DNA from: a virus
Lineage: Duplodnaviria > Heunggongvirae > Uroviricota > Caudoviricetes
DNA: 13,542 bases
Strand: one strand, 5' to 3'
IMG/VR virus record: IMGVR_UViG_2690315994_000027
Location: 1 to 13,542 of that record
Shown here: positions 3,406 to 8,488 of the stretch, one piece after another
Layout: each line of letters starts with the position of its first letter
How positions within the stretch are numbered: position 1 is the first letter of the stretch
Notes under the pieces: model-generated
Database searches by the model: none
The model's input: the letters and a program-made list of their open reading frames with translations, nothing else
Told to the model about the DNA's origin: nothing
Made by a program: the position numbers and the translations under genes

Positions 3406-6076
3406 TTGCATACTCCTTAGCCCAGCGGGGCAGTGATAACGTTTTAATAGCTGGCCATTCATCGGTATTCAGGCAGTCAGCCAGGGTCCTCAGATTGCGG
3501 TGATATTCCTGCTGGCCTGCCAGTTTTGCTTCTTCGCCCATCATGAAAATCTCAACCGGGTAACGTCCGCATTCAACAGTTGTGCTGGCAACCAGAAAAA
3601 CGAAAGTTGGCAGCACACCAAACTGTGCTTCATAACCGTCACTGTAGAATGCATCCTGAACGTGATAGCGGTAGTCGTAATAAGCCGTTTTGAATCGTTG
3701 AATATCCGCTGTGGTTTTCACGTCCATGATCCAGTGAAATTCAGGGATAATTTTGTCCGGACGGCACCGACACAAAATTCCTGTTTCAGGATCTTCCCAG
3801 TAAATTGATGATTCAGCGTGTCCGGCGCTTTCAACAAGCCATTGACCCAGCGGCAAAGCCATAACGCTCTGATACATGAGTTCAATTTTCCGGCCTTCTT
3901 CGGCAGTGATAACCGTTTTTCCTGTGCTTGCGCATTCCATCAGAAACGCTTTCTCCTCTTCTTTTCCGGCGGTTGTACGGCGGTTAAATTCAGGTGCCAC
4001 GATAAAGCGGTTACTGAATTCTTCCGGTTCAAGTACACGGCAGTGGAAAGCGGTTCCTAAATCGAGCGTTTTTGTCTTTGTGGTGTCCACTGGGGCATTT
4101 TTACGCCACAAATACAGAGCCGGAGTATCAGCAATGTCGTCGAGCTGAGACTTACTGACACCGGGACCCGCGTGGTAATTCTCATTCGAAATTCCGTAAT
4201 AAATACCAGGCTCTATGTCTCCTGCGATTACGGGATCTGCGACTTCGCCAGTTTCATCACTGCAATCGCGATGCGGATCGCTGCCAGCATTCTCCTTGTG
4301 TGGATGTTCAGCGCCTTCCATTTTCTCCGGCTCATTTTCCCGAACTTCAACCTGATTCTCGTCATCGAATGTTTCCTGATATGTTGCGTCGCCCATCACC
4401 GCACCACAGTCAGGGCAGTTATCCCCGCCAGACTGACCGCAGGCGGTGCAAACTTTCTCCGTTTCCTGTTGTTGCACTACTGGCTCAGGCTGTTTCGTTT
4501 CTGGCTCGTTTTGTTGCGTATTTGGGTCGTTCTGTTCCGCTTTCTGGTCGTTCTGTTCCGTTTCTGGCTGATTCTGGTATATAGAGTCGCGGGTCTGGAT
4601 CCCCTTAACCCATTTCGGGTCATTCGGGTCGCTAATCCCTTCAACAAATTCTCCGCGAGAGGCAGCCAGTAATTTGTCTGCATCGACAGGATTTTTTGGC
4701 GGAATGTTTTTCCGGGCTTCATGGAGTTCTGCCCGCAGTTCCAGATATTTCGCATCAACAGAATTTACCTGTGACTGAGCATCCAGCGGCTGCGTGTCCT
4801 GATGATGTTCAGTTGCATCCGGTTCCACTGTTTCAGCCGTTGCCTGTTCATCTGCCATTGCGCCAGATGGTTGCGGTTTTTCTTCGTCATCCTGTTTTTC
4901 TTCTTCTGTTACACGCTGCGGCATCGGGGCAGAGGAGCGACCACAGGCAATATCCACGATTTCTGGATCAGGGTTGGCATGATCGGTTTCAATAAGTACC
5001 TTGTTCAGATATTCAGTGACATGCGCAGTGATGACCTCGATACCAATTGGTGCTTCTTTCACGGCCGCAACCACGATGGCACGGGAATAATCCAGCCCAC
5101 CAGGCATGGCGATGAATTTGTCGCGGAAAACAGAAAAGGGCGGTTTATTTTCAGCGATAATTTCCTCGACACGTTTAGCGTGTGCCGGATGAAGGTTATA
5201 AATGTCCACGTCCATTGAACGAGCCAGTACGCCAGTGGCTACGTCGCGCGCCAGTGACGTCAGATCGTGAACGAAACCTTCGCCGCGATCGGTGAGGTTC
5301 CCGCCGCCAGCATTAGCGCCGGAAGCCGTGCGCGTGATGCGTGAAACACGATTTCCTTTCATCCACTCTTTTGTCAGCAGACCGCGATCGGTGTAGTCTG
5401 CGTCCAGGTATGCTTCGAAAAAAGCAGTCATCAGCCCCAGACTTGAATTGCCAGGATTAGGGAAAACTTTGTCAGTATCACGAACCAGTCTGTGAAGATC
5501 GCGAATCTCCAGCGGGTCGAGCAGGCTGGTTTTGTGGGAAACAGCCAGGGCAGTAACAGCTGGTAGTTCTTCAGCCCGTGCAATATGTAATACCTGGAGT
5601 TCGTCACGTGAAACGTGCGTTACCGGTTTTTCGCTGCCGTGTTGAGCAAGCCAGCGAATGGACAGCTCTTGGCCAGAAATCGGGAGTGGCATATTCTCCT
5701 CAATCTCAGTCATGTCTTCGCCATTAACATTGGTATTGTCAGTGCTGGCTGTTTTGTCCTGCGCAGAGGATGAGGGCGCGATAAATACCATTGTGATGCC
5801 ATCTTCCCCGCCTTTTTCGTAACGGTTGCAGAATTCCGTATCAAATACGCCTTCTGGTGGGAGGTCATCAACAACGGGCAAATTGACGCGAACAGGTTTT
5901 TTGAAGTCATCTTCATCGTATCCAGCATCGTCAATCGCAACAGCACCACGGGAGATGGCAATGGATAATTTTTTCGCTTCAGCCCAGTAGAAACCGCCTT
6001 TAATACCGAGACGTTTTCTTACTTTGTCATTTTTTGCTTCGTAATACAGTGGGTAAACTTGTTTATCGGTGCTCAT
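3398..6076 (-). CDS. recE: RecE exonuclease VIII (5'-3' dsDNA exonuclease)
   Basis: 892 aa; long central and C-terminal stretches ([42 protein letters not shown] ... [10 protein letters not shown]) match my recollection of RecE; the N-terminal about 100 aa and a linker repeat appear to differ from the K-12 protein as I remember it. Confidence 0.95.
4484..4567 (-). repeat. Four in-frame 21-bp tandem repeats inside recE (heptad peptide repeats [28 protein letters not shown])
   Basis: Direct repetition visible in the DNA (GGTCGTTCTGTTCCGCTTTCT / GGTCGTTCTGTTCCGTTTCTG / related flanking units); frame preserved. Confidence 0.7.
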
Positions 6077-6146
6077 TGTTTTTTAACCTCAACTCAGATT
6101 AAAATTAATGCGAGTGATGAATAAATGTCCCAGGTTCTTCACTCAG

Positions 6147-6175
6147 GCCTGCACAGTGTGCAGGCTTTCTTTTTT
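6147..6175 (+). terminator. Plus-strand intrinsic terminator between recE and racC (no upstream plus-strand gene)
   Basis: Perfect 8-bp GC-rich stem GCCTGCAC 6147-6154 / GTGCAGGC 6158-6165, 3-nt loop, then TTTCTTTTTT 6166-6175. On the minus strand the hairpin is followed by TGAGTGAAG, so it is orientation-specific for the plus strand. Confidence 0.6.
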
Positions 6176-6450
6176 CAGATTTCACCTTTTAATTTCATTG
6201 CAATCAGAGTTGCCAGAAATTCGGCTTTTTTTTCTGCGGGCAGATTCTTTCCTATGTGCACCAGACACATTTTTTTAACACCATCGTTAAGTGTTTTAAC
6301 GTTGCCTGATGGACCGTCGATATCAACCACAGTGAATGGGGTTTCTTTATTTTCTGTCTTAATCACGTAGCCAATACGCTTTCCTTCCAGGGTAACTTCG
6401 TGAACAATGTCATCAGTAGTAACAACAGTGGCTTCATAACTGGTAATCAT
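6175..6450 (-). CDS. racC: RacC-like protein (91 aa)
   Basis: MITSYEATVVTTDDIVHEV... from the ATG at 6450 with AAGGAG 6 nt upstream; length and sequence match my recollection of Rac RacC; the track's longer ORF adds 16 N-terminal residues without an RBS. Confidence 0.75.
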   Translation of the reverse strand: MITSYEATVVTTDDIVHEVTLEGKRIGYVIKTENKETPFTVVDIDGPSGNVKTLNDGVKKMCLVHIGKNLPAEKKAEFLATLIAMKLKGEI

Positions 6451-6524
6451 GTTTTTCTCCTTAATTAAGGTTGAGCGAATCCCTGCCATTGCTGGCATAA
6501 ATTCAGTTTCGGATAGTCAGTTAA

Positions 6525-6695
6525 TTAAAGTTCGTGTGCCATCTGGTCTTTTTCGGCACAGATTTCACTACAATATTTTTTCATTTCCGTCGTTGGTATA
6601 ACTCCACGCATGAAATGAAGTGGTCTTGTAATGATTTTGCTTTCTTCAATTTCTTTATTGCAAAGGTGATAAGCACATTTTATTTTCTTAGTCAT
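6525..6695 (-). CDS. ydaE: YdaE-like small 4-Cys protein (56 aa), not in the supplied ORF track (<60 aa)
   Basis: Hand translation of the minus strand: [56 protein letters not shown]; the ATG overlaps the kilR stop as TAATG; GGAG 8 nt upstream; Cys at 7, 12, 42, 46. Confidence 0.6.
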   Translation of the reverse strand: MTKKIKCAYHLCNKEIEESKIITRPLHFMRGVIPTTEMKKYCSEICAEKDQMAHEL

Positions 6696-6916
6696 TACCA
6701 TGACTCCGCCTTTACAGGTAAACCATCACGACCGAGGAAGACTCTAATCATGCAGTCAGAAATGCATGTTTTTGTAGTCAGGCTACGAATATAAAGTTTT
6801 CGCTTTTTAATATTGTTTGCCGAGGCGATATATGTCCGACCTTCATGAAGAACATAATCGCCAGGGGTCACACACTGACGTGGTATTTCATCAGTTCCGA
6901 AGTGATGAGCAATCAT
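6695..6916 (-). CDS. kilR: KilR (Rac killing protein, cell division inhibitor)
   Basis: 73 aa from [46 protein letters not shown]...; matches my recollection of KilR; GGAGAT 6 nt upstream of the ATG at 6916. Confidence 0.8.
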
Positions 6917-7081
6917 AATTATCTCCATTTTTACAAATGAATTTTGTCGATGCGGTGCCTGGTGCCTCCAGGTGACGTTAACCAGTTAACAATTAACGCC
7001 GGATAATCCACCCATAACACTGATGCTTTTAACTGTGCTGCGTGCGCTTAGCCGCATTCACCGCATCACAAAATTCACTTT

Positions 7082-7125
7082 AAAAAGGGGCGGCAGGGCA
7101 GCCACGGAGTAGAACTGATGCCGCC
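7082..7125 (-). terminator. Possible weak terminator for leftward transcription (tL-like)
   Basis: On the minus strand: GGCGGCA ... 23-nt loop ... TGCCGCC then CC and T5 (plus A5 at 7082-7086). Long loop and CC spacer make it weak. Confidence 0.25.
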
Positions 7126-7250
7126 AAAGACTACACATAGCAATTGTCGTTATTTACAACCGGAGGCGCACTCCCACCATTTAAATTTAACAGACAAGAC
7201 CGACTCTTTATGAATACCGGAAATGCGCCTTCGTGTTGTGCGCCTGTCTT

Positions 7251-7278
7251 TTTACCACTTCAGGCTCGGTGGTATACT
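7251..7278 (+). promoter_or_regulatory. Predicted promoter with extended -10 (TGgTATACT) for the 64-aa plus-strand ORF
   Basis: -35-like TTTACC 7251-7256, 16-bp spacer, TG 7270-7271, -10 TATACT 7273-7278; ORF start at 7313 with AAGG 7 nt upstream. Confidence 0.35.
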
Positions 7279-7312
7279 GGAGTTCTCACACAACCAGTAA
7301 TAAGGTATTCCT

Positions 7313-7507
7313 ATGGATAATAAAGACAAAGCCTGGCTACTTGCTTTAGCTTTCAGCATCAGATCGCAGCGAGAAACAACTCATCAAGAATTTTTCTCGG
7401 AAATCGAGAATGCTGAGAATGAGTTTTTGTCACTACTCAATGAACGTGATGCTAAAAAAAGCGCCGATTCACTTAAGGCTTGGGCGAAACTAGGCTCTTC
7501 AAAATAA
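7313..7507 (+). CDS. Hypothetical 64-aa protein, opposite orientation to the surrounding leftward operon (position occupied by sieB in Rac/lambda)
   Basis: ORF with its own predicted promoter and a modest RBS; protein-like composition; no recognised motif. Confidence 0.4.
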   Translation: MDNKDKAWLLALAFSIRSQRETTHQEFFSEIENAENEFLSLLNERDAKKSADSLKAWAKLGSSK

Positions 7508-7691
7508 TTGCTTCTGTAGCGGCATGAACAACTGTTTTTGCCGCCTCTTCAACTTCCTTGTCTGGACGACCAGCCTTTACTTTTTCTGCAATGACATCCA
7601 GCACAGTTGGAAGAACCTTGCTAATAAGCATGGCTGCCACATCTTTGCTGCACAATTGACCGTTAATAACAACCAGATCTTCACCAACCAT
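7473..7691 (-). CDS. Hypothetical 72-aa protein, first gene downstream of the predicted leftward early promoter
   Basis: ATG at 7691 with AAGGGG and 7-nt spacing; A/V/E/K-rich composition; the track's longer version begins with TTG at 7748. 3' end overlaps the convergent 64-aa ORF by 35 bp. Confidence 0.4.
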   Translation of the reverse strand: MVGEDLVVINGQLCSKDVAAMLISKVLPTVLDVIAEKVKAGRPDKEVEEAAKTVVHAATEAIILKSLVSPKP

Positions 7692-7865
7692 CTTTTTTCC
7701 CCTTAACGCCGGGTGGCGGAACGTTTTATCTACTGCGCTTTGTATCAATCAACAACTGCCGTCATGTTCGTATGCCTCAGGCTGGCTACTTAGCCCTGTT
7801 CAGTGGCTGGATAACTCGAGGAATTGTCCAGCCGTTCTCTGGTGGGGCGTTGTTTGGATATGCTT

Positions 7866-7894
7866 ATTAAACACAATACGTTTTCTTATGTCAA
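7866..7894 (-). promoter_or_regulatory. Predicted leftward early promoter (pL analogue)
   Basis: Minus strand: perfect -35 TTGACA (plus 7889-7894), 17-bp spacer, -10 TTTAAT (plus 7866-7871); overlapped by two copies of the operator-like motif. Confidence 0.5.
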
Positions 7895-7907
7895 CACGAA
7901 ATGTGTT
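7870..7907. promoter_or_regulatory. Two operator-like 15-bp sites (OL analogue), centres 23 bp apart
   Basis: AACACGAAATGTGTT at 7893-7907 (palindromic arms AACAC/GTGTT) and AACACAATACGTTTT at 7870-7884; same motif and spacing as at the rightward promoter. Confidence 0.45.
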
Positions 7908-7936
7908 TTGTGGTGGATGTCATATGATGATGGTAC

Positions 7937-7990: not shown

Positions 7991-8410
7991 TTACTCCGGT
8001 GGGGGATTATCTTTAAGCCTGCCTCTCAAATATTTTTCTACATACTCATCGATTTCTTTTAGCCGGACTTCAAATAGCTCAATCATTCGTTGTTGTTCTG
8101 AGCCCGGTAGCTGGTTAAACAACTCAAGAAGTTTTCGTTGGGATTCATTTAACCACAATTCAGAAGATTCCTGTTCTCCAAAGAGGAGCTCAGGAGGAGA
8201 TATGCCAAGTGCCTTTCCCAATACGACAGCGTCATGCACTCCAACATTTCTGCTGCCCGCCTCATAGTTACCTATACGCGATTGCGTCCATCCGCAGATT
8301 TCAGCAAGTTTTCCTTGAGATAAACCAAGCTTCTGCCTGCGCTCTTTAAGACGCATTGCAATTTTGTCATTGAGCCTACTAGCGGCAATTTTTTCGTTTT
8401 CTTTTTCCAT
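7991..8410 (-). CDS. Phage repressor, XRE/Cro-C1-type HTH, no S24 peptidase domain
   Basis: 139 aa; HTH segment LKERRQKLGLSQGKLAEICGWTQSRIGNYEAG; divergent from the Cro-like gene; no Ala-Gly / Ser...Lys autocleavage module recognisable in the C-terminal half. Confidence 0.85.
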   Translation of the reverse strand: MEKENEKIAASRLNDKIAMRLKERRQKLGLSQGKLAEICGWTQSRIGNYEAGSRNVGVHDAVVLGKALGISPPELLFGEQESSELWLNESQRKLLELFNQLPGSEQQRMIELFEVRLKEIDEYVEKYLRGRLKDNPPPE

Positions 8411-8436: not shown

Positions 8437-8444
8437 TTACATAA

Positions 8445-8488
8445 AACACAAAACAGCTTGACCATATAACACAAGATGTGTTTAAAAT
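8445..8488 (+). promoter_or_regulatory. Predicted rightward early promoter (pR analogue) with two operator-like sites (OR analogue)
   Basis: -35 TTGACC 8458-8463, 17-bp spacer, AT-rich -10 region 8481-8488 (TTTAAAAT); near-perfect palindrome AACACAAGATGTGTT 8468-8482 in the spacer and a weaker copy AACACAAAACAGCTT 8445-8459, centres 23 bp apart. Confidence 0.5.

Follow-up and report, generated by a model that had tools for sequence, protein, structure and literature searches.

Two small convergent, overlapping genes in place of sieB in a Rac-like lambdoid prophage

In phage lambda, the plus-strand gene sieB abuts the minus-strand gene N convergently, just downstream of the early-left promoter pL. 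Members of the SieB family (superinfection exclusion protein B), which abort lytic development of superinfecting phages, are approximately 160 to 190 amino acids (aa) long and carry N-terminal membrane-spanning segments. Morons are accessory genes that have their own promoter and terminator and are set between or against the genes of an operon, a concept that in lambdoid phages is said to stem from Juhala/Hendrix 2000. Genes with their own promoter that lie antisense to lytic genes have been described as a signature of prophage accessory loci (PMC7067206), and variable cargo hotspots are known from P2-like phages and P4-like satellites (PMC9122126). In P22, sieB is accompanied by Esc and the sas antisense RNA, with antisense interplay at the locus (PMC12197685). 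The pair sieB-ydaF is listed among the 165 convergent excludons of MG1655 that ExcludonFinder called from 58 RNA-seq samples, and it is for this K-12 allele only that mutually exclusive expression and RNase III processing of the duplex have been measured (PMC12288877).

Here, we describe a pair of small genes, encoding 64 aa on the plus strand and 72 aa on the minus strand, that occupies this slot in a Rac-like prophage. The 64-aa gene matches sieB of lambda, Rac, and P22 in position and orientation, in having a predicted promoter of its own, and in converging on the gene that opens the pL operon; its upstream element is homologous to that of sieB in Rac over the −35 and spacer. Unlike sieB, it shows no sequence similarity to that family, is 64 rather than 162 to 184 aa long, and encodes a protein predicted to be soluble and helical, without a transmembrane segment. 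Nor is an Esc-type internal product, as in P22 sieB, evident within it. The locus shares with sieB-ydaF of K-12 Rac the allelic position, the conserved flanks, a plus-strand gene converging on the first pL genes, and overlapping gene ends (4 nt in K-12, 35 nt here). However, the 64-aa gene replaces sieB and the 72-aa gene replaces both ydaF and ydaG, and the transcript overlap was measured in K-12, whereas here we infer it. The pair itself is new and uncharacterized; a moron or convergent excludon in the sieB slot is of a known kind.

Table 1. Features of the pair and its surroundings, with positions in the window.
Feature	Position	Strand	Remarks
Integrase gene	735–1811	−	Rac-like lambdoid prophage
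recT and recE			Between integrase and kil in gene order
kil	6695–6928	−	
DicF-family sRNA	7088–7139	−	Rfam RF00039, 60.9 bits against a gathering score of 48
Promoter/5′UTR/Shine-Dalgarno element of 64-aa gene (predicted)	7230–7305	+	Scan and conservation
−35, TTTACC	7251–7256	+	16-nt spacer follows
TG of extended −10	7270–7271	+	
−10, TATACT	7273–7278	+	
Transcription start (putative)	near 7285	+	
Shine-Dalgarno, AAGG	7302–7305	+	
64-aa CDS	7313–7507	+	ORF list; PHROG, PGAP, homologues
Dual-coding 3′ overlap	7473–7507	both	35 nt; AIILKSLVSPKP then stop on minus, KLGSSK then stop on plus
72-aa CDS	7473–7691	−	ATG at 7691; first gene downstream of putative pL
Hairpin, GCGGCAUGAACAACUGUUUUUGCCGC	7519–7544	+	GCGGCA-N14-UGCCGC; fold and covariation; starts 12 nt past the 64-aa stop
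C/U-rich tail	7545–7559	+	Directly after the hairpin
72-aa leader and Shine-Dalgarno, AAAACGUUCCGCCACCCGGCGUUAAGGGG	7692–7727	−	Just before the 72-aa start; conserved
Candidate pL	7866–7894	−	TTGACA 7894–7889, 17 nt, TTTAAT 7871–7866; read from sequence
HTH repressor gene	7991–8410	−	
cro-like and ydaT-like genes		+	Beyond the HTH repressor in gene order

Position of the pair in the prophage

The window (the whole 13,542-nt stretch of DNA that was analyzed) is a Rac-like lambdoid prophage (Table 1). The pair lies between kil and a DicF-family small RNA (sRNA) on one side and pL and the repressor gene on the other, with the sRNA between the pair and kil, downstream of the pair on the pL transcript. 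By the K-12 annotation and our homology map, this sRNA corresponds to K-12 Rac kilS; nothing on KilS turned up in a literature search. It is missing from Klebsiella loci L009 and L010, although both carry the pair. Rfam, run on both strands, placed no RNA family inside 7250 to 7700. An STnc100-like match in the kil leader (6909 to 7098, minus strand) scored 41.3 bits, under the gathering score of 47; the same stretch is strongly conserved across all compared loci and also occurs upstream of dicB in Qin. Two observations concern the genes around kil. In Pfam, a YdaE-like 58-aa zinc-binding protein (6525 to 6701, minus strand) comes close to the threshold for Rtr1/RPAP2, a eukaryotic zinc-finger family (E 1.8e-7, 31.7 bits, cut-off 33). 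In a related prophage (L007, 4947 to 5509), the place held by DicF and kil in the window, between the pair and ydaE, is taken by a PhdYeFM/ParE toxin-antitoxin pair and an Ash/Rha-type gene.

The candidate pL was omitted by the promoter scan owing to the scan's −10 rule. It is overlapped by an operator-like inverted repeat pair (7869 to 7884 and 7893 to 7908). This pair has AAACACAA in common with a direct repeat pair of the pR region, CATA(A/T)AACACAA (within 8440 to 8474), which is likewise operator-like and separates the repressor gene from the cro-like gene. The scan places a clean terminator at the end of the repressor gene (7960 to 7942).

BLASTN against K-12 Rac found homology over 6069 to 7273, ending approximately 70 nt before the sieB ATG, and again over 7687 to 7849, which is the leader just upstream of ydaG. 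Because homology stops at 7273 and resumes at 7687, the cassette at 7274 to 7686 is an allelic replacement of sieB (plus strand) together with ydaF and ydaG (both minus strand). Given the convergent layout of sieB and N in lambda, the 64-aa gene is in the sieB slot by position as well as by orientation. A preliminary description of this DNA had placed the pair where lambdoid phages carry sieB or rex; the first comparison holds, and the second is a poor one, as rexAB adjoin cI on the other side of pL.

The 64-aa gene is not a SieB gene, given its length, a maximum Kyte-Doolittle score of −0.13 over 19 residues, and the lack of sequence homology. K-12 SieB gave no tblastn match in 7100 to 7800 even at E ≤ 100, and SieB was not found by Pfam, PHROG, or NCBIfam. 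The preliminary description had also raised the possibility that the 64-aa frame (7313 to 7507) and a second plus-strand ORF (7524 to 7706) are the frameshifted remnant of one longer sieB-like gene. Only the location in the sieB slot and the existence of that second ORF suggest this. It is refuted by the empty tblastn and family scans, by the missing transmembrane segment, by a 64-aa length that is kept in dozens of loci, and by stops in the 7524 to 7706 frame of homologues, and we regard it as extremely improbable. The second ORF has no family match in Pfam or PHROGs and is merely antisense to the 72-aa gene; like the other remaining frames, it is broken by stops in one or another homologue.

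Coding status and families of the two genes

Both ORFs are real, selected protein-coding genes. The convergent, overlapping arrangement reported in the preliminary description was recovered for both ORFs (Table 1), and the 35-nt overlap is identical in 33 of 35 independently retrieved loci; variant loci with a 29-nt overlap exist. The geometry of the pair is kept across approximately 45% nucleotide divergence in prophages of Escherichia, Klebsiella, Raoultella, and Citrobacter, and both ORFs are open in the same geometry in metagenome loci too; across all of these loci, DNA identity falls to approximately 55 to 68%. Among close pairs of sequences, dN/dS in the non-overlapping parts ranged from 0.06 to 0.44 for the 72-aa gene and from 0.2 to 0.65 for the 64-aa gene, with medians over 21 distinct haplotypes of 0.31 and 0.24, respectively. 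The ratio stayed under 1 for all informative pairs, third codon positions are over-represented among variable sites, indels keep the frame, and the Shine-Dalgarno sequence and ATG are conserved. The preliminary description had named a lack of conservation in either ORF as grounds for refutation; with both ORFs kept in homologues and purifying selection acting on both frames, we conclude that both encode proteins.

The alternative that one or both are chance ORFs or annotation artefacts is very improbable. The ORFs are short and without a known domain, and the cassette occurs in only 29 of 5426 complete Escherichia coli genomes (always chromosomal, at 99% identity or more), all of which would fit such an origin. 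Against it stand the dN/dS values and third-position excess, a frame that is preserved, together with its Shine-Dalgarno sequence and ATG, while identity of the 64-aa protein among homologues falls to approximately 42%, and AF2 confidence of 78 to 80 with shallow alignments. The cassette is commoner in Klebsiella; a single cluster there has 97 members, spread over 148 contigs.

In 99%-identical E. coli prophages, PGAP annotates the same two coding sequences, each as "hypothetical protein" (WP_001419881.1 for 64 aa and WP_000232638.1 for 72 aa). Neither product had shown a recognizable motif in the preliminary description, and this stands: Pfam, NCBIfam, and PADLOC returned nothing for either protein, and PHROGs returned only families of unknown function, with full-length matches of the 64-aa protein to phrog_22868 (E 5e-47) and of the 72-aa protein to phrog_23495 (E 8e-50). 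Profile searches of both proteins against PDB sequences gave no match below E 0.27. Fold searches gave non-specific matches only, with no recognizable toxin or antitoxin fold; for the 64-aa model, Foldseek against the PDB gave a single match at E 9. The prediction of transmembrane helices, which had been proposed for both proteins, found a segment in neither. A type I toxin-antitoxin system was rejected since both proteins are hydrophilic or amphipathic, with a pI of approximately 5.7 and no transmembrane helix, and a type II system since the genes are convergent rather than a co-directional operon and match nothing in Pfam or PADLOC.

The 64-aa protein is acidic (pI 5.75) and has no transmembrane segment in a 19-residue Kyte-Doolittle window; its AF2 model (pLDDT 78) consists of a short helix (residues 3 to 16) and a long one (24 to 61). 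Length variants in this family (61, 62, and 58 aa) differ by whole codons. The 72-aa protein is mildly acidic (pI approximately 5.7), likewise has no transmembrane segment, and is modeled as a β-hairpin (residues 6 to 15) followed by two helices (pLDDT 80). Its ORF extends over 7473 to 7748 when begun at a TTG, and the ATG at 7691 gives 72 aa. A profile search of 1.84 billion representatives found only 16 clusters of this family at 50% identity, none with a known domain.

Two other identities were considered for the 72-aa gene and rejected. YdfC, which lies upstream of dicF in Qin, has an equal length of 72 aa and an equal distance to dicF, yet the two are not homologous (no BLASTP alignment at E ≤ 100). 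An N-type antiterminator would carry an arginine-rich N-terminal RNA-binding motif, whereas the N-terminus here is MVGEDLVVING; moreover, in locus L017 an N-peptide-like gene precedes the 72-aa homologue, which counts against N, as one such gene is expected per operon. The leader of the 72-aa gene, which recurs in the leaders of ydaG (Rac) and ydfA (Qin) and in Klebsiella loci, marks where the exchangeable cassette ends on the right. A small CGCC/GGCG hairpin is present in this leader, but it folds no better than shuffled sequences.

The upstream element and the 3′ hairpin

The preliminary description gave the plus-strand ORF an extended −10 promoter of its own. The scan finds this promoter and conservation supports it, so that it stands as a prediction. 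Promoter-like sites in the region as a whole are no more numerous than in shuffles, and the support for the promoter therefore comes from conservation and not from the scan count. In a five-way alignment, approximately 75 nt upstream of the 64-aa ATG are near-invariant, even where the ORFs differ by 45%, making this block more conserved than either ORF. Phages without the ORFs, namely, Rac-SA53, Cronobacter phiES15, and several from Klebsiella, likewise match the first 51 nt of the query. When the promoter element and the 72-aa leader were folded as RNA, both strands gave z near or above 0, which lends no support to a structured RNA in either.

We found the 30-nt core of the element, GGTGGTATRCTGGAGTTCYCACACAACCAG, on 104 IMG/VR contigs (L020 to L123). 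Conservation of the consensus exceeds 80% from approximately 7230 to the Shine-Dalgarno sequence and collapses where the cargo starts. In IMG/VR, at least 16 unrelated ORF families, 55 to 148 aa long, begin within a few bases of the conserved AAGGA that follows the element. Nearly all of these cargo ORFs face a leftward ORF in a convergent arrangement, with an overlap of 4 to 56 nt in many cases. The 64-aa family is the commonest cargo (40 of 112 loci), a count that takes in loci fetched earlier because they carry the pair. Among ten cargo representatives, none had a Pfam match above threshold, and one had a weak zinc-ribbon match only. Many unrelated cargo genes share one portable promoter element and, as judged by these sequences, the sieB slot is a hotspot of variable cargo that a single 30-nt pattern can retrieve.

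Two other alleles of the slot have the same promoter element and a comparable layout. In Rac-SA53, the small plus-strand ORF of the rac10/rac11 pair overlaps its leftward neighbor by 39 nt, and in phiES15, an unannotated 95-aa ORF overlaps phiES15_010 by 30 nt; the protein sequences of both pairs are, however, unrelated to those of the 64/72 pair. The slot resembles the hotspots of P2-like phages and P4-like satellites in its fixed position, conserved flanks, and many unrelated cargo genes, but its cargo consists of single small ORFs of 55 to 148 aa without defense-family matches. With morons, the 64-aa gene shares a predicted promoter of its own, a terminator-like hairpin, an orientation against lytic genes, and variable presence, being replaced by sieB in K-12 Rac, by rac10 in Rac-SA53, and by at least 16 cargo families in IMG/VR. 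It departs from them in that the promoter is a portable element reused by those families, the 3′ hairpin lies inside the coding sequence of the neighbor, and the cargo always comes with a specific partner gene. Diverged versions of the upstream element precede 56- to 58-aa variants in loci L017 and L018 (2930 to 3000). These contain two perfect direct repeats, TTCCACAGTCAAA in L017 and TTCCACAGACAA in L018, that flank a GATAAT-type −10 and could be a putative regulator binding site.

The hairpin downstream of the 64-aa stop lies inside the 72-aa coding sequence, and it covaries. Its fold has a z of −2.64, and RNAalifold recovered the same 11-pair hairpin in nine distinct homologues, with compensatory changes at 4 pairs. 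In this alignment, 93.9% of cells are paired and 16 cells are changed on both sides; these values were reached by 0 of 500 shuffles, and slid registers pair 26 to 67%. Note that the sequences in this set are few and related, and that the stem falls in Ala codons of the 72-aa gene. An excess of G-U over A-C cells (13 versus 3) favors the plus strand, that is, the 64-aa mRNA. The terminator scan did not list the hairpin, whose tail has no clean U-run but is C/U-rich. In L018, where most of the 72-aa gene is deleted, the hairpin-bearing fragment still directly follows the cargo ORF, and in other cargo families stable hairpins follow the stops, some with T-runs (seen without shuffle control). The hairpin is a putative terminator or 3′-end structure of the 64-aa mRNA.

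Linkage and possible roles of the two genes

We think it probable, with some reserve, that the sieB slot here holds an autonomous moron, the 64-aa gene, which forms a convergent excludon with the 72-aa gene, the first gene of the pL operon. The 64-aa unit would be self-contained, comprising an extended −10 promoter, a short 5′UTR with its Shine-Dalgarno sequence, the ORF, and a 3′ hairpin within the neighboring gene, provided that promoter and hairpin function as such, as their sequences suggest. It would face the early-left (pL) operon, with the 72-aa ORF as the first gene of that operon. The layout is that of a convergent excludon: the ORFs overlap by 35 nt and the hairpin falls within the 72-aa coding sequence, and because the ORFs overlap, the transcripts must overlap too. 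In the lysogen, with pL repressed, the 64-aa gene's own promoter would drive synthesis of its protein. Upon induction, strong transcription from pL would yield the 72-aa protein and at the same time read antisense through the whole 64-aa unit, which may be suppressed by transcriptional interference together with RNA duplex formation. Expression would be reciprocal: the lysogen would express the 64-aa gene, and the induced prophage the 72-aa gene. The 64-aa product would be a small soluble helical protein that acts by protein-protein contact as a factor of benefit to the prophage; this benefit would most likely be the exclusion of other phages, if slot position alone is a guide. The 72-aa early protein possibly spares the phage's own lytic growth.

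A different possibility, which we consider unlikely, is that the plus-strand unit acts mainly as an RNA and that the ORF is secondary cargo. A constitutive transcript facing pL might dampen leaky early-left transcription, as kil and DicF are toxic, or, with the same low probability, it might be an antisense RNA that excludes related superinfecting phages. No cargo is as conserved as the promoter element, which serves at least 16 unrelated ORFs and whose transcript must run antisense across the 3′ end of the first pL gene. There are also precedents in a prophage antisense RNA, STnc6030, that excludes its own phage type (PMC7067206) and in sieB-ydaF as an excludon (PMC12288877). However, the purifying selection, conserved residues, and in-frame indels of the 64-aa frame imply that the protein matters, and if the hairpin terminates transcription, the antisense overlap would be only approximately 70 to 85 nt.

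The two genes are inherited together. Every one of the 35 loci found via the 72-aa profile alone has a convergent 64-like ORF downstream, which is intact with the 35-nt overlap in 33, and among promoter-retrieved loci the 64-aa cargo is paired with the 72-aa gene in 38 of 40. A remote pair, consisting of a 55-aa cargo and an 86- to 124-aa partner, matches both families (hhalign E 3e-5 and 5e-6), and so the two genes have remained partners through deep divergence. Some longer early proteins, such as those of 114 to 124 aa in L015 (3152 to 3496), L118, and P0070, have the 72-like domain as their C-terminal half. The N-terminal module of the longer partners (LKHVIALLLEDAKRLQQ-EPNAGTEARIW) is also present in partners of unrelated cargo, for example phiES15_010. 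With an N-terminal module common to partners of different cargo, the first pL protein is a mosaic; single-linkage clustering of partner proteins lumps such mosaics, and we did not use it as a one-to-one table. The 56-aa cargo variant of L018 (3001 to 3260) is altered at its C-terminus, and all that is left of its 72-aa partner is a C-terminal remnant, which still includes the 3′ hairpin.

This linkage raises the alternative of a two-protein exclusion and self-immunity pair, toxin-antidote-like and functionally similar to P22 SieB/Esc, a proposal that we hold to be rather unlikely. Here, the 64-aa protein might abort or block phage growth, and the 72-aa protein might bind and neutralize it after induction; this division of labor is likewise a rather unlikely one. 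Strict co-occurrence, with the pair together down to approximately 27 to 31% identity, would suit it, as would the structure of the longer partners, in which a shared N-terminal module is joined to a C-terminal module that changes with the cargo; SieB/Esc/sas is a precedent (PMC12197685). However, strict linkage is compatible with functional coupling and equally expected from the overlap together with recombination at the conserved flanks, which alone suffice for it, and is not decisive. Furthermore, the variants in L018 and P0066/P0067 keep a 55- to 56-aa cargo ORF with the partner reduced to a remnant, no toxin or antitoxin family was matched in Pfam or PADLOC, and a convergent layout is atypical for protein toxin-antitoxin pairs.

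Alongside the reading of the 64-aa gene as an autonomous moron, a broader one can be put forward tentatively, each part of which we consider rather unlikely. The sieB slot of Rac-like and lambdoid prophages might be a hypervariable two-component hotspot in which an effector is matched with an off-switch or immunity module. The portable promoter might then, and this is no less tentative, express one of many unrelated anti-phage or host-modulating proteins from the lysogen. Equally doubtful, the co-varying C-terminal module of the first early-left protein might be a specific off-switch or self-immunity factor. It is also conceivable, at a similarly low likelihood, that the convergent overlap hard-wires reciprocal expression and that the 64/72 pair is the commonest allele of a new class of very small exclusion and immunity pairs.

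The pair is a compact natural case in which a convergent overlap (an excludon) would couple lysogenic and lytic expression beside the toxic kil and DicF. If the 64-aa protein is an exclusion or host-modulating factor, it would add a very small, fold-unassigned effector to prophage-encoded defense. The promoter that marks a hotspot of many unknown small proteins is the more interesting by-product of this work. If the 64-aa protein is such a factor, the promoter element would be a simple sequence handle by which one 30-nt pattern leads to at least 16 unrelated, uncharacterized families of small proteins in the same slot.
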